From Psammoneis japonica (lineage: Eukaryota): DNA of 57,774 bases. Position 1 is the stretch's first letter; every line of letters starts with the position of its first letter. Location: assembly GCA_008632985.1 (NCBI GenBank), contig QPGO01000113.1, positions 188,947-246,720 of the forward strand, written 5' to 3'. The notes under the pieces are model-generated. The model was not told the origin of the DNA. It did no database searches and saw nothing but the letters and a program-made list of their open reading frames with translations. This document shows, piece after piece, positions 18,801-57,041 of this stretch. Made by a program: the position numbers and the translations under genes.

Positions 18801-21459
18801 CAAAGCAACTTGATGAGGCGTTTCAGCGGGTATTCATCGTAGAAGGTCTCGCTCAAGTCCTTCTTCTTGGTCCCAAATGTTTTTGACATTATGCGAAAAG
18901 CAACCTTTCGCATCTGTTGCACATACTTGAACATGATGCAAGCAAAAAGATACGGAGTGGAAGGCGAACGTAAAATGGCAAAGAAGCGAGCATAGTTATA
19001 ATCTTTTTTTGCCTGTCACAATCACGAGTGGAGAAAAACGTGAGGAAGGAGTTGCTTCTCGTACGGCAACCGCGAATGGCGACAGTGACATACCTTGTAG
19101 ATGCGTAGCGCCAACTGCACAGGTTTAGAATTGTAAACCATAGGACGCTCCCGGAATAAACGCGCCGCGTAATTCAGTACTTCGGAGCCTCCATCGTTGT
19201 CCATTGTGAGAAGCATGTACAACCCCCTCATTTCTGGTTCCGCGGTTCCACGAGTCGTCGTCTTTGCGGCTTGTGATCCAATCAATCGGTTCGGAGACGC
19301 GGCCTGATTGTCTAGAGGCGATCCGTCAAAGTCACGAGGCCCGTTTCCCATGACGATAGGAGACTCGCATCCATGAATACCTCGTCCTTTCACTCCTTGC
19401 TCGTCAGCCACTTCTAGCGTGGATCTTCCAAGCGAATCATCATAGTACATGTTCAATGTCTTCATGGTTTGTCCAAGCTCCGTGATATTTTGCTGGCTCT
19501 GACTGTTTACGAAATCTGGAATATGGCTCAGCTGGTGCTCACACATTGCATGCCATCGTGCAATGCGCTCGTGACATCGAACCGCCCGCGCATCGCAGTT
19601 GCCGCCGGTTCCAACATAGTTTTGCAAGATGAAATCCTTCCGTACCATCCTTGTTCTGCAGGCCAGAACGAAAAGAGTGAGAGCGTGATACTATACAACA
19701 ATAAGAAGCCTAAGCATGTGCGAGTTGGTGACACACCTGTCCCAGATAAACTGTATGCAACCAAAAGAACCACACAGAAGCCAGGAAATATGAGTGGTTG
19801 GAGTAAAACCTAAAGAGTAAGAGTGGGGATAAAAACATGAACAATTCGTACCTGATAGACGTCTAGAGGCGGAGGACTTTGTACTTGCGTAAAGCGCGGG
19901 TCTGGGCCTTGTCGATCTCGTTCCATAACCCACTCCTCCAGATAGGCGCACACCGCTTCGAGAACACCAGGAGGTCGGACCCATTCCGGAACATTCAGTT
20001 TAAAGTCCGCGGCTGAACGGCGAAATCGCTTGACGGCGGTTTCTCGTAGAGTCCAACCATCAGGATGGATTGTGCCAGGCTGAGGGATTTCAAGTAGCTG
20101 GATATCATTTTCTTGCTCGCGTCTCTGCAGCTCATCATCCGGGCACATGGAAAGACATGTACCGACTAGCGATACTGCGGTTTCCAAGTCTTCTCTGTCA
20201 GTGCTGTCGATTTCTTGCTCGTCCTTGTCGTCCTCTTCTTTTTTCTGCCTCAGACCTTCTTGCAGTCTCGGCGTCTTGGGAGCAGCAAATCGGCGTTTGT
20301 TCTTCTCTGCCAATGACTCCACAGGAGTAAACGATGGCGCATTTGGATTCAAGGAACTGGATCCTCCGAGTGGTGGTGCATTTCGCAATCCTCCAGCGGA
20401 CGCTTGTGACGGAGGCGCACTGCCTGAGGCCGCAGCCGCAGCGGCCTCTTTCTGCCTCTTGCGCTCTAGCAGCTTTTTCTTCTTTTCTTCCAGCTTGGCT
20501 TTGAGTCTCGCCAGCTTCTCTTGTTCCGATTCTTTCCTCGTCGTTGTAGGTGGTTCTGGAACCGGCGGAGAAAAAGACCCCCTTGTAGGTGACATGGATG
20601 CATCTCGCGCCGACGATAGCTGAGTTGGAGGTGGACTTGTGCTACCGCCACCCCAAGCGCTTGCCCCAGACTGCTGCGGATTACCAAACGGAGATGGCTT
20701 ATTAAAGTCTGAATCGCCCATATCTTCATCGTCAGAAGCTGCGGCACCAAACGCCTCTGTGGTCGAAGAAGACGCTCCAAACGTCGTTGGGAATGTTGTG
20801 TTTGAAGAGCTAAACGTTGGTGCCGTGCTGCCGCCAAAGCCTGACGCACTGTTTTCTCCGGTAGGAACCACATTGGCTGATACACCAAAAGAAATTGTAG
20901 AAGAAGTCGTTGCTGCAGTTCCACCAAAGGGACTGGCAGCCGATGAAGTATTTACGGCCGGAGCAAACGCGTTTGTGGATCCAAATCCCGGCGGCTGAGA
21001 CGGTTGCTGTGCGTTGCTTCCAAATGGAGAAGACTGGGCAGTCGTTCCTCCAAAACCGTGTGGAGCGGAAGCTCCTCCACCAAATGTACCACCAAATTGT
21101 TGATTCTGTTGTTGTGCGGCAGGAAAAGGAGCTGGTTGATTTGTATTATTACCAAAGCCAGACGTGAATCCAGAAGTCTGTGTCCCAGCAAAGTTTGCCG
21201 GGGGCTGATTTGTAGAAGCCCCAAACGGCACCAGATTCGACGAGGTACCAAAGGTTGTAGCTGGTGAGCCTGCTGTCCCTCCAAATGGCGTAGATGAAAC
21301 CGTCGATCCAAAGCCTTGCTGAGGGGCAGCGGAAGTCGAGCCAAACGCAGAGGATCCAAAGCCTCCACCAAAATCCGGTTGAGACGACGATCGCTGTTGT
21401 GATCCAAACCCCGACGGTTGTTGCTGTGACGATCCAAAGCCTCCTCCAAATCCTGACAT
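15878..21459 (-). CDS. SAC3: SAC3/GANP mRNA export factor (TREX-2) with N-terminal FG repeats
   Basis: FG/GFG repeats; LVGTCLSMCP, AVKRFRRSAAD, VRPPGVL, FIWDRTRMVRKDF, HERIAR, NYARFF; long coiled-coil C-terminus. Introns 19851-19751, 19736-19656 and about 19093-19013. Confidence 0.9.
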
Positions 21460-21690
21460 GGTGATTGTGTTTCAGATGTTAGTGTGTTGTTTTGGAGAGC
21501 GGCGGCGTCAGAAGTCAGCGTGCCATTGTCAAAACTCAAAACTGAAAACACTTCCAAACTCCAAACTGTTTTGCTTGCACCGACGACTTCCAGACTGACT
21601 CTACAGCGCCGCTTGCGCGCGCGCGCGCGACAGACGTGATAACGAAGGAATGAAGCTAACAAATGCGTGCACCACACTGCTTTTTCCAAC

Positions 21691-22057
21691 TGCAGTATGC
21701 GACTGTTATATACATATTTATGATTATATATTATTTATATGTCAATCGTACCACAGTCGTGGATGCGTACAAAGGACAGAACGATCACACAGAGTTGATC
21801 GGATGTCGAGAATTGCAAATACGATCGATTGACGATGTTGACATCTTATGTGTCAATAGCAATCGTATCCGGACAATCTGTTGTCACGAATATATTCTCC
21901 GAAAGGCCTTTTGTCTGTAGAAGCAGTACAGAAGCTTTAGGCCATTGAGAACTCGTTCGGAGAAACCAAAAATCACAGAGCAAAATTTAATCTCATAATT
22001 TCCACTTTTCGTACACTATTCTACTTTCGTTTACACTCGTTCTTCGAGCATAGTGCA
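21691..22057 (+). repeat. 5' LTR
   Basis: Starts TGCAGTATGC, ends GCATAGTGCA (imperfect inverted termini); differs from 26052-26418 at 3 positions. Confidence 0.95.
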
Positions 22058-25000
22058 TTGTGTATACACACCACAGAAGGTAAAAAGCACGGAAAATGAA
22101 GATTTTAACTAATGTGCCTTTGTAAATTCTTCTATAAACAGGAACGAATCGCATCAGTTCTGCTGGAATCGATTTCCGAGCGGAAGAAGCTCAAGCCGAG
22201 CAGTGCCTCAAGATGGAACGCTGTTTTTCGTCTACCAGACAAGAGGATTCGCTCTAATACGGTCTATTCCAAGCACCCAAGGATCAAGGGCTCTCAAGTG
22301 CACCGCATTGTCAAAAAATCTACACCAAGTCATGGTTGCAGAGAATGCAAGTTCCGAGTCGATCAGGTCCGAGAAATGCGTCTGGCATGCAAGGAGAGAC
22401 CATTGGAGAGTTTTTGGAGACCGAATCAACGAGCCTCGAGTCCAAGAGCAAGATGGAACCGTTGGAAAGTGCCTCAAGAGTCTCGTGTCTCATGTCTTTC
22501 CAAGAATTGCACTTCAGAATCAGAGTTGTTATTTTCAAGACGACCTGAAGAAACCAGAGCTGCTTGACAGCAAGAAAGCCTCTGTTGGACCCAAGAGGTC
22601 AATGATGAGAGTCCATGCGACCCTCAGATGGATTCTAAGTCGAATCTAGCGGGAAACCGAGCGCTGATTTATCAGCCATCACTCGCACCGCAAGGATGGC
22701 AGCATCAGTCTACTGTCCAAAACAATCAACTGTTGCAACTCATCCTTGATGAGCTGATTAAGTTTTGAGTCATCCAAAGGTCGTTCATGACGTCCGTGAC
22801 GAAAAAACATATCAACTCAGGCTCTGACAGCGCAGTTGGTTCCAAAATAAAAAAGGTTCCAAATTTGGTTCCAAAAATGGTCTCCCACATGGTGCCAGAA
22901 CAATCCAAAGTGAATGCAAGGTCTTGTCTTTGAAAAAAGAACACCCACATCACGGATTGAAGCCATTCTAAAAATGAACTAGCAAAAGAGTGCAAGGGTG
23001 ACTCTGAAAGAGACCCAAAAATGCGCCGTTCAAATGGCAATCGCACGCGGTCGCGTCGCGATGACGAAAATGCCGCTCGCAAAAAAAGAGATGAACGTCA
23101 TGATTGATCAGGCGGTTCAAAAAACACTCAAAGCGAGTTCCTTGAACAAAGAAAAAGAGCACAAGGGCAAAGAATCAGATTCTGACACCCTCAGTGAAGA
23201 AAAATGCCAATTTGATCGGATGATCCAGACTGAATCCGAAGAATGGTTTTGGTCTGTTCACGAATTGCATGCTTTGCTGGACATTAGGAAGCCTAGAAAA
23301 AAGGCAGAAATAATTCACACCAGTCCAGGAGTCATCATTTATGTGAACACTTCCTTGGGAAAGGAGAGAAAAAAAAAAGCATCTGCGTGTTCCTGTCGAC
23401 AACGGAACATCGTCAACCACAATTTTGCGCAAATTCGTGCGAAAGTTGAGAACACAAGAATCCGCCACCAAAAACTTGGAAAACCAAGGGTGAGCTCTTT
23501 ACGACTGACAGCAAACACCGAATTCAGTTCTCACTGTGCGAAATTTAATGCGTGCTGACATGCAAACAGTGTGTGTTGAAAACACCAAATTTTTCTTCAG
23601 GTTCAAATGATGTGATCATGGGACGCGACTTAATGTCCAGTCCTGCAAGTCACACTGCACTGCGCAAATGAAGAAATCTAATGGGAAGAAGCAATCACCT
23701 TATGAAGAATGTTCACACACTCTTCGATGCCGATGTTTTCAAGCTGAAAACCGATCACATTGAAAAATGTGACGCCGTGAATGGAGTTGACAACGGAACC
23801 AATGGTCCTCGACTCACATTGTCACGCCATCGATCTTAATCAAGTGACAACTACGGCGATGCATCCAACCCAAATGAACACAACCAACTCAATCTTCTTC
23901 TTAAGAGGTTGAAATCGTTTTGAAAAGTTCCTCAGACGAATGCATGGGAAGCATCAGTGGATCTCATCGTGGAAAATCTGACGCGATTCCACGACGCGTG
24001 AGAACCTTCTCCTATCACAGTCTTTGGAGGCGTCCAATCAAAAGGAGTTTGACCCATTATGAAAGATTGAAGTCTCAAGAATGAAATTGCTCTGAACAAG
24101 TCGCTCTGAGACTCATTGTCCAAAGAAAACAGGTCAAGTTCGACCGCATCTGACACTCAGAAGCTCAGCACAAGGTTCACACAGGTGGTGCATCCTTTAC
24201 CCAATGTTCAGGAAATGCTGTTGAAGCAAGAACGTTTCATGTGTGTAATCTGTTTGATTCAAACATGGAATGCCACCATGTCAAATAAAAAAAGCACACG
24301 TCGTGCTCACACGAAAATCATGCCGTGGGGAGAAAATGAGCACTGTGGACTTCCAATGAGAATCTATAGAGCCCCAGATATTTTTATGCAACACTTGAGT
24401 GAACTCATAACAGGTTTGAAGTTGTCAGGACGACTGCATGTGATCGTTTGTGCCTGACAAAAGTAACTTCAAAATGTCACCTGCACAAGCAACAGCTTAA
24501 TGCGGCATTCAAACGACTAGAACAGTCGCTTAGAAGGTTAACAACAAAAGTCCTTCACTGTTTAACTTGAAATAAACTATCAAGACTTCCATGCGTGACG
24601 ATGTGCAATCGATTGCAAAGAAAATGGAGGCGATTCAAGCAATCGCAACACGAGAAAAACGTAAAGAACACTACGACATCTCGTTGTCATACGTCACTAT
24701 TATCGAGACATGTAGTCTCAACGATCTCCTGTACAATACTAGCCAAATTCACCTCAATAAAGGTCAAACGGCAAAAGTGCAAGTACAGAACGAAAAGTCT
24801 CCGAAAATGTGGAGCGCATCAAATCAAAAACTATATTGTTATCATACACGGATTTCAATATTATACGTTACAACGGAAAAAAGAACTTCTGTCCATAGTG
24901 AAAACACTTATAAAATTCCGAAATATACTGTTTGGCCAACAGATTTATACATATACGGATCATAAGACACAACGGACAAAGTCATACGTTGACAACTTCA

Positions 25001-26051
25001 GTCCCGAATTAGAATACAACGAGGGCAAGGCGAACATCGTCGCGATAGACGCGATCAGCCGACTTACTATAGAAAATTGAATCCTACGACAATGTCCTAC
25101 CGTTAAAACGGGATAAAGACATTCCCTCCAAATTGTCGGACGCGACATATCATACGAACACTTTTCGTGGAGGCGAGCGAGATCGAAAAATGCTCATGTC
25201 ACAAGGATAAAATCGCCTTTTTAAAGGACGATTTAGGAAAAAACAGTGACAGATTGGTACACATTATACGTATCCACTTCACACTGGCAAAAGACAATCT
25301 CACAACACCCGTACGGTTGTATTGTACAATGTACGAGGCAAGACATTAAAATATACATCATGTCGACACACGAGATGTGCCAAAGATCTAGAAAAAGAAA
25401 AGAAAAATGGACATTTATCCACTTAGTGCACGAAACCAGTGCCTTCGGAATGACAAAATAACACCGGTATGTCAGAAAGAAACGTCCAAATAACGATTAA
25501 AATCCAACTGATAGATGGTTGAAGTACAAAAAAAAAAATCCATAATGGAATTCATAACCATCACAGGATTGATTATCAAGACGAAATGGTCATAATATCT
25601 TTGACCATCGTTTATTATTACTTATGAAACGTGGTAGTGCAGCAGAGCAATATGGCATATAAAGTAAGCCCGCCAAACTACATGAAATCCACAAGTAAGT
25701 AAGTGAACGCCACAATTAAGAGCGTACATTAAGTACTGGGCACGATGCTATGTACAATCGATATCAGGAAAAACACTTACTCCAGGACAATTAGTCCTTG
25801 TGTTCATATCAACAAGAACGTCAATGAGAATACTCGACGTAATACTATATATATACATATTAAGTGAGAAACAAACAATGTCACTCTCAAAAGACATTCG
25901 GAAATTGGAACGGCCCTATATTGCCTATACAAAACAACAACAGTCATTGCTAATGGCACAATACAGTGAAAGTGGAGACATTATTGACACTGTCGATGTC
26001 CGTCGAATAATCCACTTACAAATGACTCTAATGTGCAATTAGGGAGGCGAA

Positions 26052-26418
26052 TGCAGTATGCGACTGTTATATACATATTTATGATTATATATTATTTATA
26101 TGTCAATCGTACCACAGTCGTGGATGCGTACAAAGGACAGAACGATCACACAGAGTTGATCGGATGTCGAGAATTGCAAATACGATCGATTGACGATGTT
26201 GACATCTTACGTGTCAATAGCAATCGTATCCGGACAATCTGTTGTCACGAATATATTCTCCGAAAGGCCTTTTGTCTGTAGAAGCAGTACAGAAGCTTTA
26301 GGCCATTGAGAACTCGTTCGGAGAAACCAAAAATCACAGAGCAAAATTTAATCTCATAATTTCCACTTTTCGCACACTGTTCTACTTTCGTTTACACTCG
26401 TTCTTCGAGCATAGTGCA
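26052..26418 (+). repeat. 3' LTR
   Basis: Direct copy of 21691-22057, preceded by the PPT and followed by the TSD CAAC. Confidence 0.95.
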
Positions 26419-26852
26419 CAACTTCGTATTTTGGGTCTGTTGTGTTGTTGCTTTTGGCAAGTCTAAAGCAGTCAAGCTAGAGTTCAGCAGTTACATGGAT
26501 GGATTTGAGATCTCACAAACTGTCGCTGCTGCTGCACCACACAAAAGCAACAACTCCTCACCAGGAGGCAGGGTCACACAACGGTGCAAGAACCAACTCA
26601 ATTTGGTCTTCTTCTCACAGACAAGAGAGAGCAGCTCTCACAGTTTTCTCCATGGAGCAAGACCATTGTTGCAGGAAAGATCTGCTGCTGATCACATGAT
26701 TGTGGGCTTGTCATCATTGATGTGGAGACTGTGGTGGTGTCGTGTGTCCTCACATTCACCACCTCAGTGTCGTGACAAGTCAAGCCAGCTCAAGGAACTT
26801 TCAGAGGTCTTTGCTTTGACTTGGCCCCTCTCCTTCAAAACAACACATCAAC

Positions 26853-27145
26853 TTTTGATGCCAGAGATTTGACAATTGCAGAGCAACTCATCAGTGGGAG
26901 TGTTCCAGCATCACCACATGCACGCAGCACTTTGTTTCTTTCCAGACACCATGGTGCGATCATTGATGGTTGCTGACTGTTGCATGGAGTCTGTTGCTGC
27001 CAAGATTCCAGGCTTCTTCTTCCCGCCACATTGCTTGCAAGAGACACAAAAGACATCCCATCAAGCACCCATTCTGCTTTCCAACAATGGCTGTCAATGT
27101 GCGGAAACTGTCGCTCTGTTTTGTGATCGCAAAAATGGAGGCGGC
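26853..27145. repeat. Diverged dispersed repeat, copy 1 (copy 2 at 36479-36850)
   Basis: Collinear shared blocks ttttg.tgccagagat, tttgtttctttccagaca, tgttgcatggagtc, ccaggcttcttctt, gacacaaa, ttgtgat.gc..aaaaatgga. Confidence 0.65.
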
Positions 27146-27271
27146 GATGACGCATGTTCTTCAAAACAAAAACGTTGACAACACCACACATGTGACTGTT
27201 GGAACACTGGGGACAGATGCAGTTTTCACAGGACAGACAGACAAAGTTGCAGTGTGGGATGCACTGATGAT

Positions 27272-28858
27272 TGTGGACAATGTGGCAAGTTTGCACTCAC
27301 AACTCGGGTTGAGTTGCGTGTCTTGTGCTCACTTTTTAGCTTCTGCACCCGGTTGACATGGCAATGACAACAAGCAGTGGTGTCAGTTGAGTGTTTGCAA
27401 GCCACATGGCAAGCTGGGAGATGGTGAGACTCAACACACACCAGCTCTTGGTGAGCCACAAAGCTCTGCTGAAGCTGAAAAGTTGCGGCACGACACTCAA
27501 AGGAGTGGTGTCTTTCGAGAGCTGGGAAGTTGATGGGAATCCACAGATGAGGACTGGGAAGTCAGCAGGAATCCAAAGGAAAGAGCCAGGATGTTGATGG
27601 GAATCCAAAGGTGTGCCTCATGTTGGTGGATTGCAGCAAACAAGCCAGCTGGATGAGGGTGAAGAAACAATCTCTGGAGGACCTCGCTGTTGGAGAAGCT
27701 GTCAAGGGTCTGCTGAAAGAGGGTGCAGTGATGTTGTGTCAGGGTCAGTGAGACAGAGTGTGCAATTGTTGACAAGCTGTGGAACTCCAACACAAAACAC
27801 AAGTCCCAGAAAATGTGGGCAAGGACACAGCTGAGTGCGACACATGGAAACCATGAGAAAGATTGGCGAGTGTGTTGGAAGAATGTTCAGGCTGGAGGTG
27901 CAGGCACTGATGTCCATGAGGCAGGAGAGCATGCCAGAAAAGCTGGATTGTCCATCAAGAGACACCATGACATTGGAGAAGGATGAGGAAAATCTGGGGC
28001 AAGAAATGAGGCCACCGTGTGAAACAGAGCACAATCTACAAGATGAAGAAGGCAAAGGTGTTCAATGTGATTGTGGGGCAATGCACAAAAGCCATTCATC
28101 ACAAGCTTGGAGGAGCAGCAGAGTTCATGAGAGTTGCAAAGGAGTGGGATGTGGTGGCACTGCTGAGCATTCTCAAGTCAATCTTGTTCCATGCAAATGA
28201 GAAGACAAACCCTCATGTCCAGGCAGTCAAAGCTTGGAAGCAGTTTGTGCTCATTTGTCAAGACAAAAGAAAGGTGCTTCAAGATCATCTCAGTTGGTTC
28301 ATGAGCCCAGCCAAGATGGTGGAAACTTCCTGTGGCAGGATCATCCAGGAAGAAATTGCCAAGAAGCAAAATGGGTTCAGCAAGGATGCTGATGACACTT
28401 GGAGCAAAGAAAGGAACAAGTTGTCAGTGGTGGTGTTGTGGAAGGCACCAAGGATTGTTGGCATGTCTTGAAAGACCTGCACCAGCAGTTCATGTTGGGT
28501 GTTCACATGTGCCCCAATTCAGCTGAAAAGGCATTGCAGGTGTTGGGCACCTGCGGCACCAAAAGAAACCTGAGGGTGCAAGTTTTGTGCAGAGCAAAAA
28601 GAAGAAGAAAATCACATGTTGGAAGTGCAACAAAGTCAGACATCTGAGAAGGGATCATCCTGACAATGATCATTCATCAGTGGAGTTGGATGCCGCAGAT
28701 CACGGGAATCAACAGAGTGGCGATTGTGGACAAAATGTGGCAAGTTTGCATTTGAAACTTGGGTTGAGTTGCAGGTCTTATGCTCGCTGTTTAGCTTCTT
28801 CACCTGGTTGACATGGCAATGACAACCAGCAATGTCAGTTGAGTGTTTGCAAGCCACA
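27272..28858 (+). mobile_element. Short LTR element carrying only a decayed copia-type gag
   Basis: About 135-bp direct repeats 27272-27406 and 28725-28858, each TGTGG...CCACA. Internal gag-like YKMKKAKVFNVIVGQCTKAIHHKL...DVVALLSILK and zinc-knuckle remnant ITCWKCNKVRHL; no pol. Confidence 0.7.
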
Positions 28859-30500
28859 TGGTGAGTCAGGAAAAAGCGAGACTGAACATGTGCCTGTCAG
28901 CAAGCCATGAAGCTCCAACAGTGACAAACGAGCTGGCATGCAAAGGAACAACAAAAAGAGGAGCTTGGCAAAATGGTGGCAGCAGCATGCTGTGTTGCAT
29001 CCAGTGCTGTGTTGTGCATTGCTGTGGTTGCTGGCTCTTGGGTGTAGAAGCCAGCATTGTTGCTTCTGCACATCATGAAAAATGCCCACAAACAACCTGA
29101 GACAGTTTTCTTGCAGTGACAGAATTGCGTTCATTGTGTGCAAATGCATGCGTGACAAGTGTGTTTTTGTCTGGTCATTTCAACAGTTGATGATTGCCGT
29201 GTGCTAAAAATTGTGAGCTCTGGCAGGTGATGACAAAATTGGCTCTGAGGTCTGTGCAGAAATCATGCTTGATTGACCTCATTTCACCTGGAGCTGGAAC
29301 TGGCACAGGTGCAATGCTCACATTGACAATGGCCATTGCACCCAAACCTTCACTCACAACATTCCTGCATGCTCACAAAACCATTCACTCTCATGCCATT
29401 GTGCATGAGACTTTTTTTCAGCATGATGCATGCAGTCTCACTTGATGCCAGCAGACAACTCACTTGCGCACACTTGACACCAGCACAGACAGCTTGATCT
29501 CTTTCACCCACAACTCAGACATCAACAACTGCCATCAATTTGATGCTTCACACTGACCCCACCAGGCCACAGATGGACTGCCTTTGCCAATGAAGAACAA
29601 CTTGCGCAGACCCTGACAAAGCCAGTGCCAGCAACTGTGCTGCAGTGCTGCAGCAAGACTGCATGCAATGCCACGGGGTGGGCAGGCAGTGACAGGGCAA
29701 CCTGTGACATGGATGACCATTGTCTGTGGATGTGGGGGGGCTTGTCACAGATTTCATGCATGGCATTGGATCTTTGCAAATGAGGGGTGATGCCCAAGCT
29801 GCCGTGCCACTTGGGGCCCCTGAAGTCACTCTGGTCATTGCCCCCTGACATGTGTTCTCCAGACAGATTGGGGCATCTTCTTGTGTGGTGGCTCTGGCTG
29901 AAAGTGTGACCCCTCTGAGCCAGAGCAGATGGTTGCTCAGTCAGATGGGGCACTGTGCTCCCACACCACCAGCAAGAAAGATCATGCTTTCACCCCATCA
30001 TGGTGCACCCTGGCACCAAGGAGCTGCCACACCATGGCAGCAGTGCCTCTTGCCTTCTGCGACCAGTGCTGCCAGAGCCTTGCCAAAAAATGCACTTTGT
30101 GTGCTGTGCACCAACTGCCATTGAACTCTGTGCACTTCTTTGCACAAGCAAAAGCAACCATTTGGGGGACTTTTTTTTTGTCCAAATGGCAGACAAAATT
30201 TCCTTGATGATCCTCACAGTGTGGCATTGCCCAAAACAACACATGTCTTTGGCTGTTCAACAGAGAGATTGATGCAACCAGAAAGTTTTTTCTTTCTCCA
30301 GCATGTGTGCAATGTGCCCCTTGCTCACACCAGAAAGGATGTGCCAAATCAATGCTCTGGCATGGAACAAATGTTGCCAAAAGCTTCTTTCTCAACAGCT
30401 GGCAAACCAAACTGCAACCATGGCTGGGTGACAACAGAGTGGACAACGACCATTCCTGCTTGGCCATTGGCCGCCACAGCACAGATGGACTTTCTTTGGT

Positions 30501-33400
30501 GTGTCATCCATGGAGAGTGATGAGTCTTTGGGTGGCAATGTGAAAGAACAAACAGACACATTGGTTGACTTTGCAGCAAACATTGAGAAGAGTCATCTGA
30601 TGAAGAACCTTCACAGCATTTTGCCAGTGGTGTTGCCAACACCAAAGAAAAGGCAAGACAGACATGCTCCAAAGCTCGTGAAGATTTTACAAATGGGCTC
30701 ATCATTTTTTTACATGGATCTGGAGCATGGGGGTGATGACTGTGGAGATGTTCAGCTGTTGACTCTTGCTTGTGATGCTGTGACAAAGTTGACACTGGGC
30801 AAGTTTGACAAGCATGTGTGCCCACCCTCACATGCTCATTGGACTGAAGCAACCATGTCCACACATGGCGTGCACCCAAACCAGGAGAGAGTGCAGCCTG
30901 TCTCTCCTTTTGAAGAAGTGTGGAAGCAGTTTGTGGATGTTGTTGAGAAACATCTTGACAATGGCAACAAGAAAGGCACCCTTGTCATGTGTGTGTGGGG
31001 CAGACAGGCACGTGATTGTGAGTCACTGTTTTGAGTCACAGAGGATGCCCATCATGGAAAACTGTTCATGCCAAGGTGGCACCCTTGTTTCATGGATCCA
31101 GAGAAAGTTGTTGCAGAGCACCTGGGGTGCAAATTGAGCAAAAAACACTCCAAGACAGCTGGGCGTGGATGCAAAGCAATGCACTGCCATGTGATGGGGC
31201 AAAAGCAAATTGAAAATCAAAAGGCATGCACTCTTCTTCCATTGTTGATGATGCTCATGAACAAACACTTTTGGACACACATGCTGACAAATCAAAGTCT
31301 GCCAGATGTGTGGGGCATGAAGAAGAGGAAAGCTCAAGATGCCAAGCTGAAACAAGCTGTGCTGAACAGCTGGTCTGAAGACAACAATGAAAGTTGGGAA
31401 ATTCTGTGTCAACACAGATGCACAGGTCCAGTGGGAGGGCCACACCATGGACCCACTCAAGAAGCCATGCTGTGCTCTGGCACATCACTGGCGTCACTCT
31501 TCTTGTTCTTTTTCCCAGTTACACTGCTTGAACCATTGCCACTGGGACAAACTGATGCAGCAATGAAGACTTTGTTTGTGAATGTGATGGAACATTAGAA
31601 GACTGTGGCAATGATGATGACAATGAGCCAGAAGAAAATTGTGCAGAGCCCAAGGGATGAGGATGAAGAGCCAGAAGAAAATGATGCAAAACCCAAGGGA
31701 GAGGATGAAGAAGAAAAGAAGCCTTGACTTGCCACACATGACAAATCACACCCTGGCGCTCAACATGGACACAAGGGAAAACCAACTCCTGCCATGGCTG
31801 GGCATGTTTGGGCCTTTTTTTGTTCCTTTCCTGGCCTGTTCAGCATCAGTGTGTTGGACTTGGTCCGCTCATTGTGGTCAAGGTTGTCTGTGCATCTGAA
31901 ATGCCATGACAGGAGCAAGCAATGTGTTTGACCAGCTTTGCACAAAAATGCATTTCATCAATGGCAACATGCTCCCATCTGACAAGAATGACCCACGACA
32001 GTGGTCCCCATTGCAAAAATTAATCCTGTTTTCATTGTCATCCAGTCCACTCTTGTTTCAGCATGGACACTTGGACAGAAATGTAGTGCAGACAAAATCA
32101 TGATAAAATGTGTGGGGGTTGAGCCATTGCGTGGACCCAACACATGTCTGCCAAGCCAGTCACACATGAGACAAAGGTTTGTGCTTTGTGCTGTGCATGC
32201 AAGGCTTTCTCTGCACCTTTGAGACACATGCTGGCAAGGAACACACCAAAGATGGTTCACCACCAAAAGCTGTTGTTGATTGACTGCTGCTCAGCACAGG
32301 CACTCAAGTCACTGTGCAAGGGGAGCTGGATGGATTTTGTGTGCAGACAACATTTCTGCACTTTGATGGAGGCGATGCTGCATCTGTCATTGTGCACAAG
32401 ATGTTGATGCCAGTGGGGGTGTGTTTGGGCTGAGCAAGAAAAAGTCCTGAGCTGCAGCTGACTGTGATGCCACAACAAGCTGTCTGGTCCAGCCCTCAAG
32501 AAAGCCAAGCATGGTTGGTTGTGAAAGGCAGTCAAGCAAGTGATGGGTGTGCAGGCAGGCAGCTCCTCATCTACAAAGTGCGGGCAACAGTGTGGAAAGA
32601 CAAGAAGGAGGTGGGATTCCTGCACAATCATGTGGTTGGCCCCACAGACCCCAGCCACACAGTTTTGCATCATTCAGGAGAAGCCAAGGTGAGGATCAAG
32701 ATTTCCAGTCAGGAGATCACCACCAAGCACACTGCCCACACATCTGGGATTGACCACAAAGACAGGGACACCACCAACTGCACCACATCCATTCACACAA
32801 AGCAATTGGCTGGCACTGTTTGTGAGTGTTTTTTTAGCTCAACAATGGTGCGCCACTTGCAATGTGTGCCATCGTGAAGTTTGTGGCTGCTGATCCAAGT
32901 CATCAGTGGCGCAAGTGCTTGCCAAAGAATGAAGGTTGGTGCAAGTTCCAAACAGACTTGGCAACAGAGATGATGAGCCATGGCATCCAAATGGATTGGA
33001 AGAAGGACACAGCAGATGAAAACTCAAAACCAGAAAAGATGAGACAACTTGGGTGCATCCCATGTGATTGCAAAGAATGTTTTTTCTGCAACAAGGGCAT
33101 TGTGCAAGTGGCACTGACCATTGGAGATGTTGCCCAACTCCTCACAATGCACGACACCTGTTCAGCATCAGCCAGACATCAGACCAGGCTCAAACAACTG
33201 AAAATCCTTGACTGTGGAGAGTGTGCTGCAGGAATGATCTCTTTGACATTTCTGATTGCAGCGTGACAATGGATGAGCTTAGAAGCTGCTGTGCGCAAAC
33301 TGGGGTTGGGTGCCAAACTTGTGGAGACCACAGAGTGACTGTTTGTGTGAAGGCTGCTGGCCAACCTGCAATCAAGACATTGACCAACAGCAAATGTGCA
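30501..33400 (+). pseudogene. Decayed piggyBac-like (DDE_Tnp_1_7) transposase with an N-terminal DEDDh exonuclease-like domain
   Basis: Exonuclease-like FFYMDLEHGG...QL...FDKHV.P...THG...VWKQF...D. Transposase fragments in order: LASLFLFFFP, FDQL..MHF, AWTLG..CSADKIMIK, KP..H..KV.ALCCA, ATVWKDKKEVGFLH, GIDHKDRD, KFQTDLA, MRQ...PCDC..CFFC..G, plus a Cys-rich tail; many stops and frameshifts. Confidence 0.8.
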
Positions 33401-34199
33401 CCAAAATGTTGACAAACTGAAATTCACACGTTGGCCAAAAGGAACCAAATTTTGCAAAGCCCCTCACATGATGCTGTGTGCAACAGCAGCACTCTGTTGA
33501 TGCACCCAGGCTGGGTTTTGAGAATTGACACAAACCTTCAAGCCACTTGAAAGCATCAAAACAATCATTTGGAGCCCCCTCTCAGCAGTGGTCATGCACA
33601 CCCCCTCATCCTGGGCGTGCATGCAACAAGGGAAAAAACATTGGAGAATTGATTCAAACACAGCTGTCTCAAGTTGGAAATTGAAAAAATGCCATGCTGA
33701 TGAACATTGAGTGTGACAAAATCACTTGAAAATTTTGGATTGACACTCCCATGCTGACAGGGGGATTCCAACACTGCAACGTGCCTCAGGTGCATGTGGA
33801 AGGCATGGGAGCAAATGATGCAAGAGCTGCAATGCAGTGAAGACTTGCAGTTGTGCTGAGTGCTGAAAGCTCATCACAGCTCCATGCATCATGATGATGG
33901 ATGTGGTGGTGTGTTGTGTGCAAAGAAAAGTGCACAGCCGCAGCACACTGTGCAGTCATTTGCAGTCACCCTGGAGGAACACACAGTTGGTTTTTCACTG
34001 ACTCCAACACCACCATTCAATGCATTGCAACACACAGCAGAGTTGCTGCAATGCAGCTGCAGCAGTGCAGCTCCCATTGCTGCAACAGCTGCAATGTGTT
34101 CCAACATTGCAGTTGCTCCACTGCTGCTTCTGCAACAAGAGCCTTGATCTCAGGCTCAGGAACAACTCTTGTGCTCTGGTGCTGGTTGTTGAAGAACTG

Positions 34200-35750
34200 T
34201 TTTGCTTGAGTTGCACCCCACCTGGTGGGCCCAGCACTGCTCTCATTGCTTCTGAGCCTGAATTGCAAGTTTGTGGCTCAGATCCTTCAAGGATCAAAGA
34301 AGGTGGGACAATGTCATGCATTGTTGGCTGGACTTGTGGCAGGTGGCAAAAAGGAGTGCCATGTGTCAAGCAACAGTGCTCTGGACCAACCAACATGACA
34401 GCAGCCACATGGGGACATTTGTTGCAGCACTTGGAACAGACACCAAACCATTGGATGAAGCAGGTCAAACACTTGACGTGGTCTTTTGGAGTCAAATGCT
34501 GCAAATCTTAGAATGTCCATTGAGTGAATGACAAACTTGCAACTTTGCAACATTCTTGAATTCATCAACTGATGTGAACATGCACAGTGTGTTCCAGGTG
34601 ACACTGCACGACCCCCACAACACAATTGCCAACACAGCTGCTGCTGCTGGTGGGTGCTGCTGCCTGCGCCATTTGTTGCTTGTCCCTTTACAAACAATGG
34701 CACCTCCTGAGATGCTGCAGCAAGATGGAATCAACCTGAAGACAGGCTTCTGTGTGTTGAGCTCAATGATGTGTTCATCAAAGCTGTCTTGAATGAAATG
34801 GGCGTGAAGCAACACATTGTCCTGTGGCATCATTTCCACAGCAATGGGCAAAACAAGTGTTCTGGAGTTGTTGTCACACTGGCTGGAACAAAACAATGAA
34901 AAAGTCTTTCATTGTTTCCCACCACTGAACATTGAAGAAATGCCAAAGAAATGCTGAGCATGTTTGAGTCATGGGGGGTCCCCACAGCAGACATGAAGGC
35001 TCTGCGCAAGCAGCACAAAGTTGAGCACACTTAGATTCTCATTGACGAGGCCCAGAGGGTTCATGAATTTGATGCCATGTGGGCTTGATTGTTGCCGCAA
35101 CTCAAGACTTCTTAACCCTCCTTGGGTCTCACACTTTCCACTCAACTCCTGCCCCATGTCTTTTTCAACTTCCTTGTCAGGGAGGTCAAGAACTTGACCA
35201 CAGTGATGTTTTGCGACCATTTTAGATTGGCACGAGTCAGGCCAACTGGGTCAACTGTTGGAACATGGTCATGGAAATGAGCATTGTTGACAGTGGCAAG
35301 GAGCAAGCAGAGTTTCACATCAGAGCATCTTGAGAGATGTGCACTTGACGTTGAGCAGGTTTGCAAAATTTCAAACTCCAACTCAAATGGGACAAAAGCC
35401 CAGCTCCAACTGCAAAGGCAGGCATTGGTCAAGGCTTTGATCACAGCTTTGTGATCACTGGATCCATGCTTTAAGATGAGTTGCTGAGAAAGGCTGTTTC
35501 ACATGTTTTGCTGGGTGTGCTCCACACAGATGCAGCAACTTTTTCACCTGACAACTTGTTGCCAATGGCAAGAGCCAGAGTCTTTGTGCTGCAGGGCAGC
35601 CTTGCTTGTCAGGCTGCACAGTGGTTCTGCAGCAATGGCATGCACAACCCCAATTGGGGGCATGGAGCCTCCCAAACAATGGCACCAAGGAGTTGGCAGA
35701 GAGGGCAGCTCTGTTGCTTTCAACCTCTCAGCTCAAAGCATGCAAAAACC
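34200..35750 (-). pseudogene. Probable decayed MULE/Mutator-type transposase
   Basis: Minus-strand fragments in the expected order: PLF...H...WG, SSDHKAVIKAL (cf. ISDRHKGL..A), SNMLS (cf. TSN.AES), and a SWIM-like C..C...CPHVAAV. Heavily mutated. Confidence 0.42.
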
Positions 35751-36478
35751 GGGCAGTCTTTTCTCTTGGAGACCAGCTCTGACATTCACTTGATTGCTTC
35801 CTGTTGTCATGTCATTCAAGCCTGAGTGCAAAACAAAAGCGCCAGGCTTTCTGGGCAAGAGGGGAGATGTGGGTTGAAGCGGCATGTTTGGCGAACAAGC
35901 GCCACTCAAAATCCTTTTTCTGGGTGCCCCTCTGGGAGGGGTGCTGCCTCTGCAGCCTTTCACCCCCCTTTGGTGGGGTCAGGTTGAGACAATGTGAGCG
36001 CAAATCATGGTGACCCCAAAGCTGCAGCAGCGGCAAGAGGGAAAGTTGCGACCTTGTGCACATGGCTTCTGAGCTGACACAATGGGCAGACATCACGGAA
36101 AAGCAAGAGACAACACTCTGCTTCACCAAATTCTTGTTTTTGGTTTGTTTGTTGTTGCTTTTGGCAAATCCCCACCAAGCAGTTGTGTTTAGAGCACAGC
36201 ACTTGTGGACAGATGTGAAATCTCATGGACTCCTGCTGATGCTGTGCCCAGCTCAGGCAGCAGGTTGAGTTGGCACACAACTCAGCTGGCGTCTTTTCAC
36301 AGACAAGAGCACACCTCTTTTTTGCCATGGAAAGAGGCCATTTTGTTCTCATGAAGCTGAACCCTGAACTTCACAGTTGTTGATGTGGGGCTGCGTTCTT
36401 GCACTCACCTTCAGTGGCTTGAAATTTGAGCCAGCTCAAGAGACAGCAGGAGGCCGCCGTTGCTTCTCTTTCCATCGA

Positions 36479-36850
36479 TTTTGCTGCCAGAGATGCAACG
36501 ATCACAGAGTGACTCATTCACCAGAGAGTTCCAACACCACCACCTGCACTCATTTCTTTGTTTCTTTCCAGACATGGCATCATGTTGAATCAGCTTGCTC
36601 TGCCCACGAGGCATGTTCAGAGTGCACAGCCCGCATGCGCAGCACTCCCATTGGCCGATCATGGTTTTGCTGATTGTTGCATGGAGTCCACTGTCACCGA
36701 CACTCCAGGCTTCTTCTTGCCACCGCGCCATTTGCAAAAAGACACAAAATAAAAAGAGATTACCATGTAGTTGAGCATTCATTCGTTGAAAAGAAAACGC
36801 AGGAACAGTCGCGTTTCTTTCCGCATCATTGTGATTGCGAAAAATGGAAG
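36479..36850. repeat. Diverged dispersed repeat, copy 2 (copy 1 at 26853-27145)
   Basis: Same collinear blocks as copy 1, with an extra segment of about 70 bp. Confidence 0.65.
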
Positions 36851-37248
36851 TCTTGTGGGCGAGTCGTGATTTGAAATTTGAATGGCGCGCATCGAGCGTT
36901 GGGTCCCGAAAGCAGTATTATAATAATATTAGTAAATTCATAATCTATGAAATTATAAATATTCAATAATGTAGGTCAATAACTCTTATGAGAGCACCGC
37001 ATATAACGGCTAAACGATTAAGTTGTCAAACACGACCTGTCACACGACAAACTCTAGTATTGATTCTACGTGTGTTGGCTGGCGCGGTTCTGGAGTCGCG
37101 CCACGCCAACAAAAAAGAAGCAAAGAATTTTTTACCGAACTCGAGTCCCATCAACGGTGTGGTCCGGCCTTTTGAGAGAACAACCAAAACCGGAAACGCG
37201 TTTGCTATTCCAACAACAAAAATACGAGAACCAGAGAGAGTGTTACCC

Positions 37249-38086
37249 ATGGCGATACGCAAGTCCGAGCCGTCACCGGTGAGGGAAGCAATCGAGGTAG
37301 ATCTTCAGAGTGGGACGCCTCGAGTGGAAGCGATCGAATACAACAATGATGATGACGATCAAGCAGCAGGTATGAATATAGAAGTGGAGTCACAAATGAG
37401 CAGCCAGCGTGGAATGCTGGTGGAGAGAATAACGTGTGCTCCTATGGAGTCGATTCCAGAAGATGAGGGAATCTTGGCGGCCATTATCAATTACTTTTTA
37501 CCCGACACAGACAGTGAAGCAGTAGCGAGTGTTCCGCCCCCTACAACAAAGTCAATTCTGAGGACCAAAAAGGATGCGGATCAAGGTCCCGTACAGCGGA
37601 ATGTCTCATTTTCGAGTTTGGAGATTCGGGAGTACAAAATGACTCTTGGAGATCATCGTAAGTTTAGTTTCGATATGATTATGCGAATGCCTTGGGGATT
37701 CTCATTCGTGTTGTTTTGTTTTTGATCCCCAAACTTTCACGCGTTCAACTGTAGCGAATGCCAAGTCTGGTCCACCCACGTCTCTTGACTGGGAGTACAA
37801 GCCTAATCCCGAAATTGTCGACTTGGACAAGTACGAGCGTAACAGATGCCCTCGCCGTCATAAAAACAGGCTGAGAATCAGCATCAGGGACCGCGAGCAG
37901 TTGCTCGTGAAGGAAGCGGGCTTTAGCTATACAGAAGTGAAGGATGCTTGGATGAAGGCGTTGGAGGTTAGGAAGAATCGACTCGATACCATTCGGCGGA
38001 GTCCAGCGGCGGAAATGATGGATGAAGTGTGGGAGTCGGCAAACCGCAAGTTTTGGCGTTTGTTTGGTTGGAACAACCTCGGATGA
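37249..38086 (+). CDS. Hypothetical protein of a diatom-type family, 2 exons
   Basis: Motif RNVSFSSLEIREYKMTLGDH / NAKSGPPTSLDWEY...DLDKYERNRCPRR...RE.LL; GT-AG intron about 37658-37753; start codon uncertain. Confidence 0.65.
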
Positions 38087-52499: not shown

Positions 52500-54200
52500 C
52501 AGCATTGAATTTTGTGATTCAATTAGTTGGTCACGACTGACTGGTTTCCCACCATCCACCACAGTGAATCACGGCATCACAAATGCCTCTTGTTGTGCAG
52601 TGGGGCAATTGTTCGCTTGATTTCCTCTCCCACAATGACACAAACCACATTGAACTCTGTGATCCAGTGAGTCGGACATGACCAACTGGTTCTTTTCAGT
52701 TGGTTGCCTCACCACAGCAAATCACAGCATCAGAGACACCTCTTGTTTTGCAGTGGAATTCTTCCACAGATCCACAAATTTGTCAGGAACAAGAAACTCC
52801 GTTCAGTCTTGCAGCAAGTTGCAATCCTTCCCTGGACCCCCCTTGTCTAAATTGCAATGGCTGGCACCCAACATGAATGGACTCTGCCACAAAATGTGCA
52901 TTGACTGGGGCAACACACCATGTGACAAATCACACAGTTGACATTTTCCCCCCAGCACACATTGTTCAAAACTCATGACACAGAACAATTAAAAAGCACA
53001 AGGTCATTTTTGTGAGATGTTTGTCCCTGGGCAATCTTTGGCTGAAAACAATGAGGCTAGACCCAATCCTTGTGCTTGGTGGCTTGCAAACATTGATGTG
53101 CACAGAGCAGAAGCAGAGTGTCTTTTTTTGACTGTTCCTTCCCAAGTGACTGCAAATGACCACATTTTGCATTTGGTTTTTACATTTTACACCCACAAAG
53201 CATGCAGTCATTGTTCAAAGATGTGTTCACTTGAATCTTGCAGTGGAAGTGTCACCATTCAAATGCTTTCTCTTTGTTGCTGCCTGTTTGGGGGGCTGCT
53301 GCTCTGTGTGAACCTGGACAGAAGAATCATCTTTGGGAGCAGCTTGGATTTAAAGACTTGAAAAGCCATGATGCAAGTCTTGTTGGTGTCAAAAAGTTGA
53401 CTGGCTTGCTTCAATGTGACAAAGTTGAGAAAGGCAAAGAGTGCACATCCATTGGAGAGTGGAGCATCGCCGCCAATGACAACAAAGAATGGCGCAGCAA
53501 ACAAGAGAAAAAGAGAGGCTTGCACAACAGCTGATGCTGCAAATGATGTGCTTGACATTGACTGGTCAACTTTCAAGTTGTGAGAGCTTCAGTGTGATTG
53601 TGCTTCAATGTGATTGCATTTTGAAGGCTTGGACAGAGTGTGGGGTTGTCCACATGCCAGAGGTTTTGCACAGCCTTTGCAAGCACGGGATGGCGGCAAA
53701 GCCTGCAGCAGGGTTTGCACACAAAAAGCAGCCCTGATGTTCTGGTGCTGTTGTGCCAGAGTAGATTGGTGCAGAGCTTGGGAATGTGTGTCCAAACACA
53801 TTTGTTGAAGAACATCGGTGTGTGTGCAGCATCAGGTGTGCGAAGCCAGGAGAGCGCACGTGCAGGGAGTTGGCAAAAGATCTTTCACTCACTTCAGTTT
53901 CTTGTTTGATCAAATTGATTGTGGGCCGGCTGGGGCTTTGATCAAAGAAAGGCCCCACGGATTTTGTGGAACTCACTGCCTCCACAGATGAGCTCTGTCT
54001 TGCTCTGCTCTCCCCAGGAAAACTGAGAAACAAAAATCATGTTGACGAGGAGACTGACAAGAAAAAAGAAACCACTGGTCCTTTTTTGGAACACCGTGGA
54101 CTGTGCACACCAAATCACTCTTCAAAGTTATTTCTTTACACAGCAACACAATGTCGCCTGTCGTAACAACGAACACTCGCGCCTCGCCAGCACAGGGGAG
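52500..54200. mobile_element. Second TpA/CpG-depleted island, unidentified decayed element
   Basis: Fewer than about 10 TA by eye in the core 1.6 kb and few CG; Cys/His-rich nonsense ORFs; no family motif recognised. Confidence 0.55.
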
Positions 54201-55718: not shown

Positions 55719-57041
55719 CTAAGCGGTATTAATTACAATCTTTCCGACACTCTTGCCACTTTGAATCAAGTTGTGTGCGTCGGCAATTTGGTCCATGTTC
55801 ATTTCAACAACACGTGGGCACCGAAGCTTTCCTTGCTCTAGCCACTCACAGATTTGATCAAAAAGTTCCGTCACAATCTCCTTCTCTTCGGCGAAAAACG
55901 ATAGATTGAATCCCATGACTGATTTGTTACTGACCGTCAAGTCCATTGGGTCAAACCGGGGCATGGAAGACATCTTTCTGCCCATACGGATCCATTCGAG
56001 AGGTGATAGCATGGCTCTTCCAAGAGGAAGGTTACTGTGAAAGCCAAAGACAATTAGCCGTCCCGTTGGAGTCAGGTGATTGTATGAATCCGAAAGCGTC
56101 GAAACGCCATTAGCATCCATGATTGCAGCATATCCCGTTGGTGATATCTCTCGTGCCTTCTCCCATAGAGGCTCTTGGCTCTTATCAATTACGATATCGC
56201 ACCCCAGCATTTTGGCCTCCTCCACCTTGGCAGTCGATCCAACGACACCTACAATTGGCGAGAGACCAAGGATTTTCGACATTTGCACCATCATACTTCC
56301 AACACCTCCAGCAGCAGAATGGATCAGAATGGCCTTGTTGATGTGTTTGTTTGGACGTGGGTAGTGACCCGCGAGGCTCAACGCATACAAGGCCGTGAGC
56401 GAAACCGCAGGTAGAGCCGCCGCTTGTGCAACTGTCAAGCCCTTAGGAATCTTTCGCACTTGAATCTTTGGAACTAGAACACGTGAGCTGTAGGCTCCAA
56501 ATAGAGTACAACCGAAGACACGATCTCCAACTTTCCAATCCTGATTACCGCCAGTCTCTCCTGAACCGACACTCTCGATAGTCCCTGCAATGTCGAATCC
56601 TGGGACAATCGGGTAACCGACAAACTTCTTTGCGCTCTCATAAAGACCCCATCTAATGGTACAGTCGGCATAGTTGATAGAGAAAGCCTCGTTTTTAAGA
56701 ATTACGCAGTCAGATGGAACTTCCTGCGAAACCTTCGACGGAGAATAAGGCGACGGACCAACGTCTGGTAGGTTGTATCCCATGGTACACACACCGTGTT
56801 TCAATGAAACTAGACGCAGCTGCTCCATTCCACCGGGACGACCAATGGAGATACATTTCGTCAATGAAGATGTCTTTGAATCAGTAGTAGATCCAACCTC
56901 TTCCTCGTCGCATGCGGGAAGCAACCGCGGCAGGTACGAGGGGAACAAGGTCGAAACGAACCACGAGACAACATTGCCCCACATGGCTAAAAGAACCTCG
57001 GGGTTTTGTCCCAGGATTGTCCATTTCTTACTTTCTGGCAT
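55719..57041 (-). CDS. VAT1-like medium-chain (quinone) oxidoreductase
   Basis: INYADC..RWGLY, PIVPGFDIAG, ILIHSAAGGVGS, GRLIVFG, NKSVMGFNL, AHNLIQSGKSVGKIV; start assumed at MPESKKW. Confidence 0.85.
   Translation of the reverse strand: MPESKKWTILGQNPEVLLAMWGNVVSWFVSTLFPSYLPRLLPACDEEEVGSTTDSKTSSLTKCISIGRPGGMEQLRLVSLKHGVCTMGYNLPDVGPSPYSPSKVSQEVPSDCVILKNEAFSINYADCTIRWGLYESAKKFVGYPIVPGFDIAGTIESVGSGETGGNQDWKVGDRVFGCTLFGAYSSRVLVPKIQVRKIPKGLTVAQAAALPAVSLTALYALSLAGHYPRPNKHINKAILIHSAAGGVGSMMVQMSKILGLSPIVGVVGSTAKVEEAKMLGCDIVIDKSQEPLWEKAREISPTGYAAIMDANGVSTLSDSYNHLTPTGRLIVFGFHSNLPLGRAMLSPLEWIRMGRKMSSMPRFDPMDLTVSNKSVMGFNLSFFAEEKEIVTELFDQICEWLEQGKLRCPRVVEMNMDQIADAHNLIQSGKSVGKIVINTA

Follow-up and report, generated by a model that had tools for sequence, protein, structure and literature searches.

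Mobile DNA can be altered in several known ways. C:G to T:A is the commonest spontaneous change. Fungal RIP (repeat-induced point mutation) is usually recognized by index thresholds of 0.89 for TpA/ApT and 1.03 for (CpA+TpG)/(ApC+GpT). Among editing enzymes, ADAR and especially the TadA/ADAT-type adenosine deaminases favor U or T before the edited A. Sequence also moves between copies by ectopic gene conversion between the long terminal repeats (LTRs) of high-copy families, as in yeast Ty elements and primate endogenous retroviruses. For diatoms, one survey describes transposons that are CG-methylated by DNMT5, and reports DNMT4, a relative of fungal RID with unknown function, in 31 of the 60 species surveyed (PMC9998398). 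The subject here is a retrotransposon in a 57,774-nucleotide stretch of the diatom Psammoneis japonica (contig QPGO01000113.1, positions 188,947 to 246,720), the whole of which is called the window. The element (21691-26418) lies beside an island nearly free of TA, and an earlier note had proposed that the three differences between its LTRs are recent, post-integration products of a TA/CG to TG/CA process that may spread from that island. Two of the three differences prove to belong to haplotypes shared across the LTR family, and the process itself has left its mark on both the island and the family.

LTR differences and family haplotypes

The element and its immediate borders comprise the following features.

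21691-26418, plus strand: LTR retrotransposon, Ty3/gypsy type, with an LTR pair, TG..CA ends and a target-site duplication (TSD)
21687-21690, plus strand: left TSD copy, 4 bp, CAAC; the two flanks read CCAAC/TGCAG and GTGCA/CAACTT
21691-22057, plus strand: 5' LTR, 367 bp, TG..CA ends, 30 TA and 20 CG; T21849, T22012, A22018
22058-26051, plus strand: internal region, decayed, Ty3/gypsy-type, without a long open reading frame (ORF)
26052-26418, plus strand: 3' LTR, 367 bp, 28 TA and 21 CG; C26210, C26373, G26379
26373-26379, plus strand: clustered difference pair, CA and TG in the 3' LTR, TA and TA in the 5' LTR
26419-26492, plus strand: spacer between the LTR and the TA-free zone, starting with the right CAAC copy; it is the unmutated head of an old left repeat

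The LTRs are identical at 364 of 367 positions, CAAC stands on both sides of the element (4-bp agreement by chance has a probability of 1 in 256), and the purine run AGGGAGGCGAA directly precedes the 3' LTR, ending at 26051. Exactly three mismatches are present in the assembly, all transitions (T/C, T/C and A/G) and all as the earlier note described them: 21849T/26210C (TTATGTG versus TTACGTG), 22012T/26373C (TCGTACA versus TCGCACA) and 22018A/26379G (ACTATTC versus ACTGTTC). The 5' LTR holds T, T and A, and the 3' LTR holds C, C and G, giving one CpG site (CG versus TG) and two TpA sites (TA versus CA, TA versus TG). All three do fit a TA/CG to TG/CA signature; yet, with no polarity imposed, 54.5% of possible LTR transitions swap TA/CG with TG/CA, and three of three accordingly has p = 0.16. 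Similarly, two of the sites do lie 6 bp apart, a spacing that two of three randomly placed sites reach with p = 0.095. By themselves, the three differences are not more than chance would produce and carry no statistical weight.

Spread from the neighboring island is contradicted by what lies between. From the end of the 3' LTR to the TA-free zone, which starts at 26493, is a distance of 74 bp, and intact TAs at 26383, 26393, 26412, 26427, 26464, 26478 and 26492 separate the changed sites from the island, as do intact CGs at 26389, 26399, 26406 and 26425. Within this interval the spacer at 26419-26492 retains the last four of those TAs (26427, 26464, 26478 and 26492) and the CG at 26425. Because seven TAs lie intact along the way, no spreading from the island took place.

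Independent data came from Logan contigs of three runs, one sample and one study, the only runs found to contain this DNA and with no RNA run listed among them; the contigs were aligned to 25400-37400. The contigs differ from the window at fixed single-copy sites and are therefore not simply the same consensus. Summed depth reaches 7840-39223 over the element, against 55-70 over the single-copy island, which marks the LTR family as high-copy. Contigs break at the LTR edge, one of them starts exactly at 26419, and none bridges LTR and flank; among the variant positions listed, none covers 26210. At 26373, T accounts for 16223.9 of 31614.9 depth (51%; 20 contigs) and C for 49%. At 26379, A accounts for 11339.3 of 23409.6 (48%; 13 contigs) and G for 52%. 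One X2 contig (record 16) carries T at 26373 together with A at 26379, and the C,T,A haplotype is present on X2 records 9 and 16.

With alleles near 50% of depth and T and A on one contig, T..A and C..G are therefore two linked family haplotypes, each in about half of the family, and not private new hits; the proposal of recent post-integration hits at these two sites is not supported by this result. An element integrates with two identical LTRs, so one of the pair in this copy afterwards took the other existing haplotype at both sites. Two random new hits would not be expected to recreate an existing haplotype. In our ranking, short-tract ectopic gene conversion is the likeliest cause of the switch, followed by recurrent hits at hot sites and then by assembly consensus mixing.

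The family varies mainly at TpA steps. Among the variable sites listed in 25400-26418, seven of seven are TA versus TG/CA and none is of CG type, though the LTR alone has 21 CGs. The window reads TA at 25460, 25468, 25635, 25963 and 26219, where TG/CA makes up 54-81% of family depth. At 26373 and 26379 the 3' LTR in the window reads CA and TG, against TA in about half of family depth. At 26219 both LTRs carry the minority allele A, the family being 66% G. Random expectation for the TA-type share of transitions is 0.30-0.31. In a control set of 78 metagenome loci of intact relatives from other organisms, comparison of nearly identical copies gave 163 TA-type changes among 563 transitions (0.29), with a CG-type share of 0.245. 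Against the 0.29 baseline, seven of seven has p ~2e-4. The 112 variant places as a whole comprise 27 A>G, 24 T>C, 19 C>T and 19 G>A changes, along with 23 transversions.

In such a high-copy family, LTR-LTR differences may be imported family variants rather than new mutations. Three sites can therefore neither date nor localize the process, and they do not show it acting after integration.

An island converted in place, and a second with its signature

The element inserted beside an older, internally repeated sequence, and a second island lies further along the window.

26493-36750, no strand: island 1, the TA-free zone; observed/expected (o/e) ratios TA 0.03, CG 0.16, TG 1.92, CA 1.87
26419-27142, plus strand: old left terminal direct repeat L, aligned to 36127-36851
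36127-36851, plus strand: old right terminal direct repeat R; TA and CG reappear past 36750
27265-27510, plus strand: nested direct repeat, copy 1, of a multi-copy family
28718-28953, plus strand: nested direct repeat, copy 2, aligned to copy 1
52525-54129, no strand: island 2; TA 0.06, CG 0.21, TG 1.79, CA 1.78

Part of the earlier claim stands here: a TA/CG to TG/CA process is present in this genome and has touched the LTR family, as island composition, discordant repeats and family variants all attest. Island 1 holds 22 TAs in 10.26 kb, with GC content unchanged and other dinucleotides near background; AA/TT, for example, is 1.13/1.22 against a background of 1.16/1.14. The mass balance per kb is +96 for TG+CA, -50 for CG and -37 for TA, so CG loss cannot alone pay for the gain.

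The island's own repeats record how this composition arose. Repeats L and R, a diverged 725-bp pair framing the island, share 622 aligned columns, with identity at 444, 125 transitions and 53 transversions; at 18 dinucleotides one copy has CA where the other has TG. The nested pair has 233 aligned columns (174 identical, 48 transitions, 11 transversions) and 14 such discordant dinucleotides. Such discordance is what independent conversion of an ancestral TA or CG in the two resident copies would produce, and it would be very unlikely otherwise. The part of the left repeat beyond the TA-free zone keeps TA at positions where the right repeat has TG/CA (26427 and, in one alignment, 26464). Copies of the nested family elsewhere have TA at 27256 in 63% of depth, whereas the island has TG. 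As judged from these patterns, the process acts on DNA in place, on both strands and to saturation.

TA loss is broader and earlier than CG loss, as seen along the borders of the island and across the element's 5' half. The edges of island 1 (26493-27300 and 36400-36750) lack TA and still contain CG, and the element at 22.5-24.4 kb has TA o/e of 0.21 with near-normal CG (0.82). This order matches the seven TA-type and zero CG-type sites among the top family variants. CpG decay is still ongoing in the island: CpG makes up less than 2% of its letters, yet among the 22 fixed differences listed between the window and run X1, 11 are CG versus TG/CA and one is TA versus TG.

Island 1 is single-copy (depth 55-70) except at about 27.0-28.9 kb. 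A unit of about 1.7 kb, flanked by direct repeats of 200-250 bp and belonging to a multi-copy family, is nested there (27000-28950), and bins over 27004-29008 have summed depths of 285-2628 against about 60. X1 contigs join 27249 to 28756 and 27280 to 28756; nested-unit variants or solo forms therefore exist elsewhere. Run X1 has a heterozygous patch at 31810-31839 in the otherwise single-allele island, made up of three linked variants that account for roughly half of the depth (36.3 of 67.2). Residual island TAs are strand-asymmetric, with 17 of 23 in TTA and 5 in TAA, often as TTTAGA, CTTAGA, TTTACA or TTTAGC; the asymmetry is unexpected, because a strand-symmetric process should leave equal numbers. 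Island 2 is intergenic, 1.6 kb long and sharp-edged within tens of bases, and has the same signature as island 1.

The distance between the left edge of the TA-free zone and the start codon of the minus-strand gene at 19810-21459 is about 300 bp, and the right edge falls about 220 bp before a candidate ORF at 36970-37725. A transcript running from R to R was considered as an explanation of the zone, an idea that would require an R of 550 bp; a chromatin domain bounded by the flanking promoters fits the edges as well. Searches for content within the island returned little. Pfam applied to 52 island ORFs and six read-through frames found no family beyond one sub-threshold match, the period-3 purine/pyrimidine signal gave no clear coding trace in the island, and purine/pyrimidine-coded BLAST of the island against the window recovered solely the island's own repeats.

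The element is itself decayed. Pfam gives a single weak match in its internal region (RT_RNaseH, E 8e-4), with integrase not detected. A read-through reverse transcriptase (RT) piece finds 34 relatives by phmmer (best E 6.9e-13) and retains 42 of 129 conserved columns. Full-length relatives have the domain order RVT_1, RT_RNaseH, Integrase_H2C2, rve, and this order of RT, RNase H and then integrase points to the Ty3/gypsy type for the element. TA o/e is 0.86 at 24.5-26.05 kb, and GC in the 3' half is low (0.36-0.41). The family sequence that was amplified is therefore a mosaic in its own right, with a TA-depleted 5' half and a TA-normal 3' half. No match to a 27-base word from the LTR turned up in a scan of metagenomes.

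The young insertion (26418/26419) lies only a few bases from the outer edge of the old left repeat, and the sequence left of it has no homology to the upstream side of the right repeat. Insertion at this edge could reflect integration aimed at a silent-chromatin border, or chance. The 549-residue ORF at 19810-21459 (minus strand) is rich in FG repeats in its N-terminal half, has its promoter side toward the element and the island, and has a C-terminal part that we take to resemble the SAC3/GANP type. Elsewhere in the window, a 440-residue oxidoreductase (55719-57041) has its best relatives, 60-73% identical, in Cyclotella, Thalassiosira, Seminavis and MMETSP diatom transcripts, and the genes are almost without introns. 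The window is a scaffolded draft containing a 705-N gap.

Polarity, mechanism and rival explanations

At the family level, the sequences weakly suggest that TA is ancestral at 26373 and 26379, the polarity that the earlier note had assumed. A diverged subfamily (4 contigs, agreement 0.91, with a loose end after 26371) reads T26373, G26374 and A26379 and stands nearer to the T..A haplotype; with three CGs lost close by, it is a set of decayed copies. Moreover, the dinucleotide at 26373-26374 occurs as TA, CA and TG across the family, three states for which a TA ancestor is simplest. The assumption thus draws some weak support from the subfamily, whereas the family majority has TG/CA at five other sites. 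The TA-rich half of the element needs no TA-gain process, because intact relatives have the same TA level (o/e 0.56-1.18 at metagenome loci from other organisms). Intact related elements in those metagenomes contain no TA-free stretch, a finding on other organisms that has no bearing on other diatoms. Seven relatives (L033, L038, L064, L030, L023, L029 and L032) combine CpG o/e of 0.04-0.34 with normal TA (0.62-0.92), and CpG decay without TA loss would accordingly be the usual state elsewhere.

The preferred account, held tentatively at slightly under an even chance, is that CpG and TpA are both hypermutable in the mobile DNA of this genome, that the clustered pair is a gene-converted family haplotype, and that the CG/TG difference reflects CpG deamination. 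It includes the view that the element is a decayed, non-autonomous Ty3/gypsy-type LTR retrotransposon of a high-copy diatom family, inserted at the edge of a much older relic that is saturated and TA/CG-free. CG to TG/CA would be the ordinary decay of methylated CpG, and TA to TG/CA would be a second process, a TpA-specific A:T to G:C transition that may proceed in silenced chromatin, where A or T at the palindromic TpA step would be modified or deaminated. Changes of TA to CA and of TA to TG probably gave rise to the C..G haplotype at an earlier stage of the family. After insertion, one LTR would have acquired the other haplotype as a block, most likely by short-tract ectopic gene conversion from another copy, and the 21849/26210 difference is most simply read as CpG deamination in the 5' LTR.

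Five properties of the TA half can be read from the sequence: it involves transitions only, is strict for TpA (not WA), is strand-symmetric, acts in place and has sharp domain edges. Candidates for the TpA step include a TadA/ADAT-like adenine deaminase, with its 5'-U/T preference, and thymine oxidation at TpA of the 5-hydroxymethyluracil (5hmU) or base-J type. Polymerase-eta-type WA to WG mutation was ruled out by the unchanged AA/TT in the island, and pre-integration RNA/cDNA editing as a sole cause by the independent and symmetrical conversion of repeats at the locus. The TA-specific process is probably real in this genome and possibly new. In a literature search with most subscription journals outside its reach, nothing on TA to TG/CA hypermutation came up, whether in diatoms or beyond them, and passages of PMC9998398 and PMC2806351 did not describe it either. 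A wider proposition, conceivable though rated clearly short of even, is that an undescribed process acts in place on both strands of resident mobile DNA and strips it of both palindromic pyrimidine-purine steps, TpA faster than CpG, in effect as the mirror image of fungal RIP. CpG would go by the familiar methyl-cytosine route, and TpA could be lost through a 5'-T-preferring adenine deaminase or TpA thymine oxidation; the process would already dominate variation in a young LTR family, and its end state would be islands of 1.6-10 kb with TA o/e of 0.03.

Several points weigh against the preferred account. Gene conversion was not directly observed and, like polarity and mechanism, is something that we infer; the matched 4-bp TSD speaks only against inter-element recombination. 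Copy-specific LTR states rest on the assembly, with no contig bridging LTR to flank, all sequencing evidence comes from the one sample and study, and summed contig depth is not equal to exact copy number. The seven of seven covers the best-supported positions listed only, out of 112 variant places. At five of the seven variable sites the window has TA against 54-81% TG/CA in the family, and majority rule would make TA derived there, the RIP-like direction. A protein-level polarity test with 12 RT relatives proved noisy: among ten conserved Tyr columns, three are kept, three have changed from TA to the TG/CA type (Cys, His or TGA) and four have changed otherwise, and one Trp became TAG, the opposite direction.

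It seems improbable that the differences are three direct post-integration hits on this copy, with CG to TG in the 5' LTR, TA to CA and TA to TG in the 3' LTR, and clustering by way of the island. In its favor, all three sites fit the signature, the existence of such a process is proved by the island, family variation is mostly of TA type, and the predicted ancestor C,T,A exists on X2 records 9 and 16. However, the fit (p = 0.16) and the clustering (p = 0.095) are unexceptional, seven TAs and four CGs toward the island are intact, and the derived alleles already make up about half of family depth and are linked; the hits must recreate an existing haplotype with the same outcome, CA at the first TA and TG at the second. 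Ordinary GC to AT decay, or a RIP-like process in which the RID-like DNMT4 carried by many diatoms might be involved, would instead put all three changes in the 5' LTR (CG to TG, CA to TA and TG to TA), with family variation running toward TA. The 5' LTR does have the A/T state at three of three sites, the family majority has TG/CA at five of seven sites where the window copy has TA, and the 3' half of the element has GC of 0.36-0.41 and TA o/e of 0.86. This reading is nonetheless unlikely. Old relics in the window end TA-free, not TA-rich, and intact relatives match the TA level of the element 3' half, whose indices (TpA/ApT 0.77-0.86; (CpA+TpG)/(ApC+GpT) 0.88-1.15) stand on the non-RIP side of the usual thresholds. 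A CA ancestor at 26373-26374 costs an extra step given its three states, and T..A is also found in half of the family, which brings back the problem of a recreated haplotype.

An assembly or polishing artefact, in which reads of other copies set the consensus at sites near 50:50 and the real LTRs are perhaps identical, has a similarly small chance. The clustered differences are the two listed sites nearest one half (0.51 and 0.48), the scaffolded draft contains its 705-N gap, and no contig bridges the LTR and unique flank. Yet both LTRs keep the minority A at 26219 against 66% G, so that majority-driven consensus mixing is not general, and the LTRs are otherwise identical with a clean TSD.

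Should TpA-specific hypermutation of mobile DNA be real, it would be a new mutational signature, and maybe the product of a new genome-defense or chromatin-linked base-modification pathway in diatoms, a major algal group. LTR-based insertion dating would be biased, and old transposons would escape similarity searches, here leaving a 10-kb island without recognizable content. TA- and CG-free islands would then offer a simple sequence marker of long-silenced DNA.

Comparison with known systems

RIP in Neurospora and other ascomycetes, which depends on RID/DNMT4, resembles the island in several respects. Both involve dinucleotide-specific transitions that saturate repeats in place with sharp edges, both mutate repeat copies independently, and both erase recognizable coding capacity. 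The direction differs: RIP turns CpA/TpG into TpA, with lower GC and higher TpA/ApT, whereas in the island TpA is destroyed, TG/CA is doubled and GC is 0.46-0.55. Island indices are 0.00-0.15 for TpA/ApT and 1.6-2.3 for (CpA+TpG)/(ApC+GpT), and neither the island nor the element 3' half registers as RIP by these measures. The likeness lies in the pattern of sequence change.

Decay of methylated CpG, as in vertebrates, plants, Cryptococcus and diatoms with DNMT5, accounts for the CG to TG/CA half and for the 21849/26210 difference. Its traces are present in the sequence, in CG o/e of 0.16, in the excess of TpG and CpA and in the 11 of 22 listed differences that fall at CpG. Such decay leaves TpA alone, in contrast to the island, where TA loss is broader and earlier than CG loss.

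Editing, whether G to A by APOBEC3 or A to G by ADAR, is a further parallel, as transition hypermutation of retroelements with a neighbor preference. The targets of these enzymes are cDNA or RNA, ahead of integration, and their action is strand-asymmetric, whereas in the island TG and CA rise equally and locus repeats were converted independently, which places the process on resident DNA. Finally, ectopic gene conversion between LTRs imports a linked block of family variants into one LTR after insertion, as we infer at 26373/26379. Here the tract would be short, spanning 26373-26379 and leaving 26219 unchanged.

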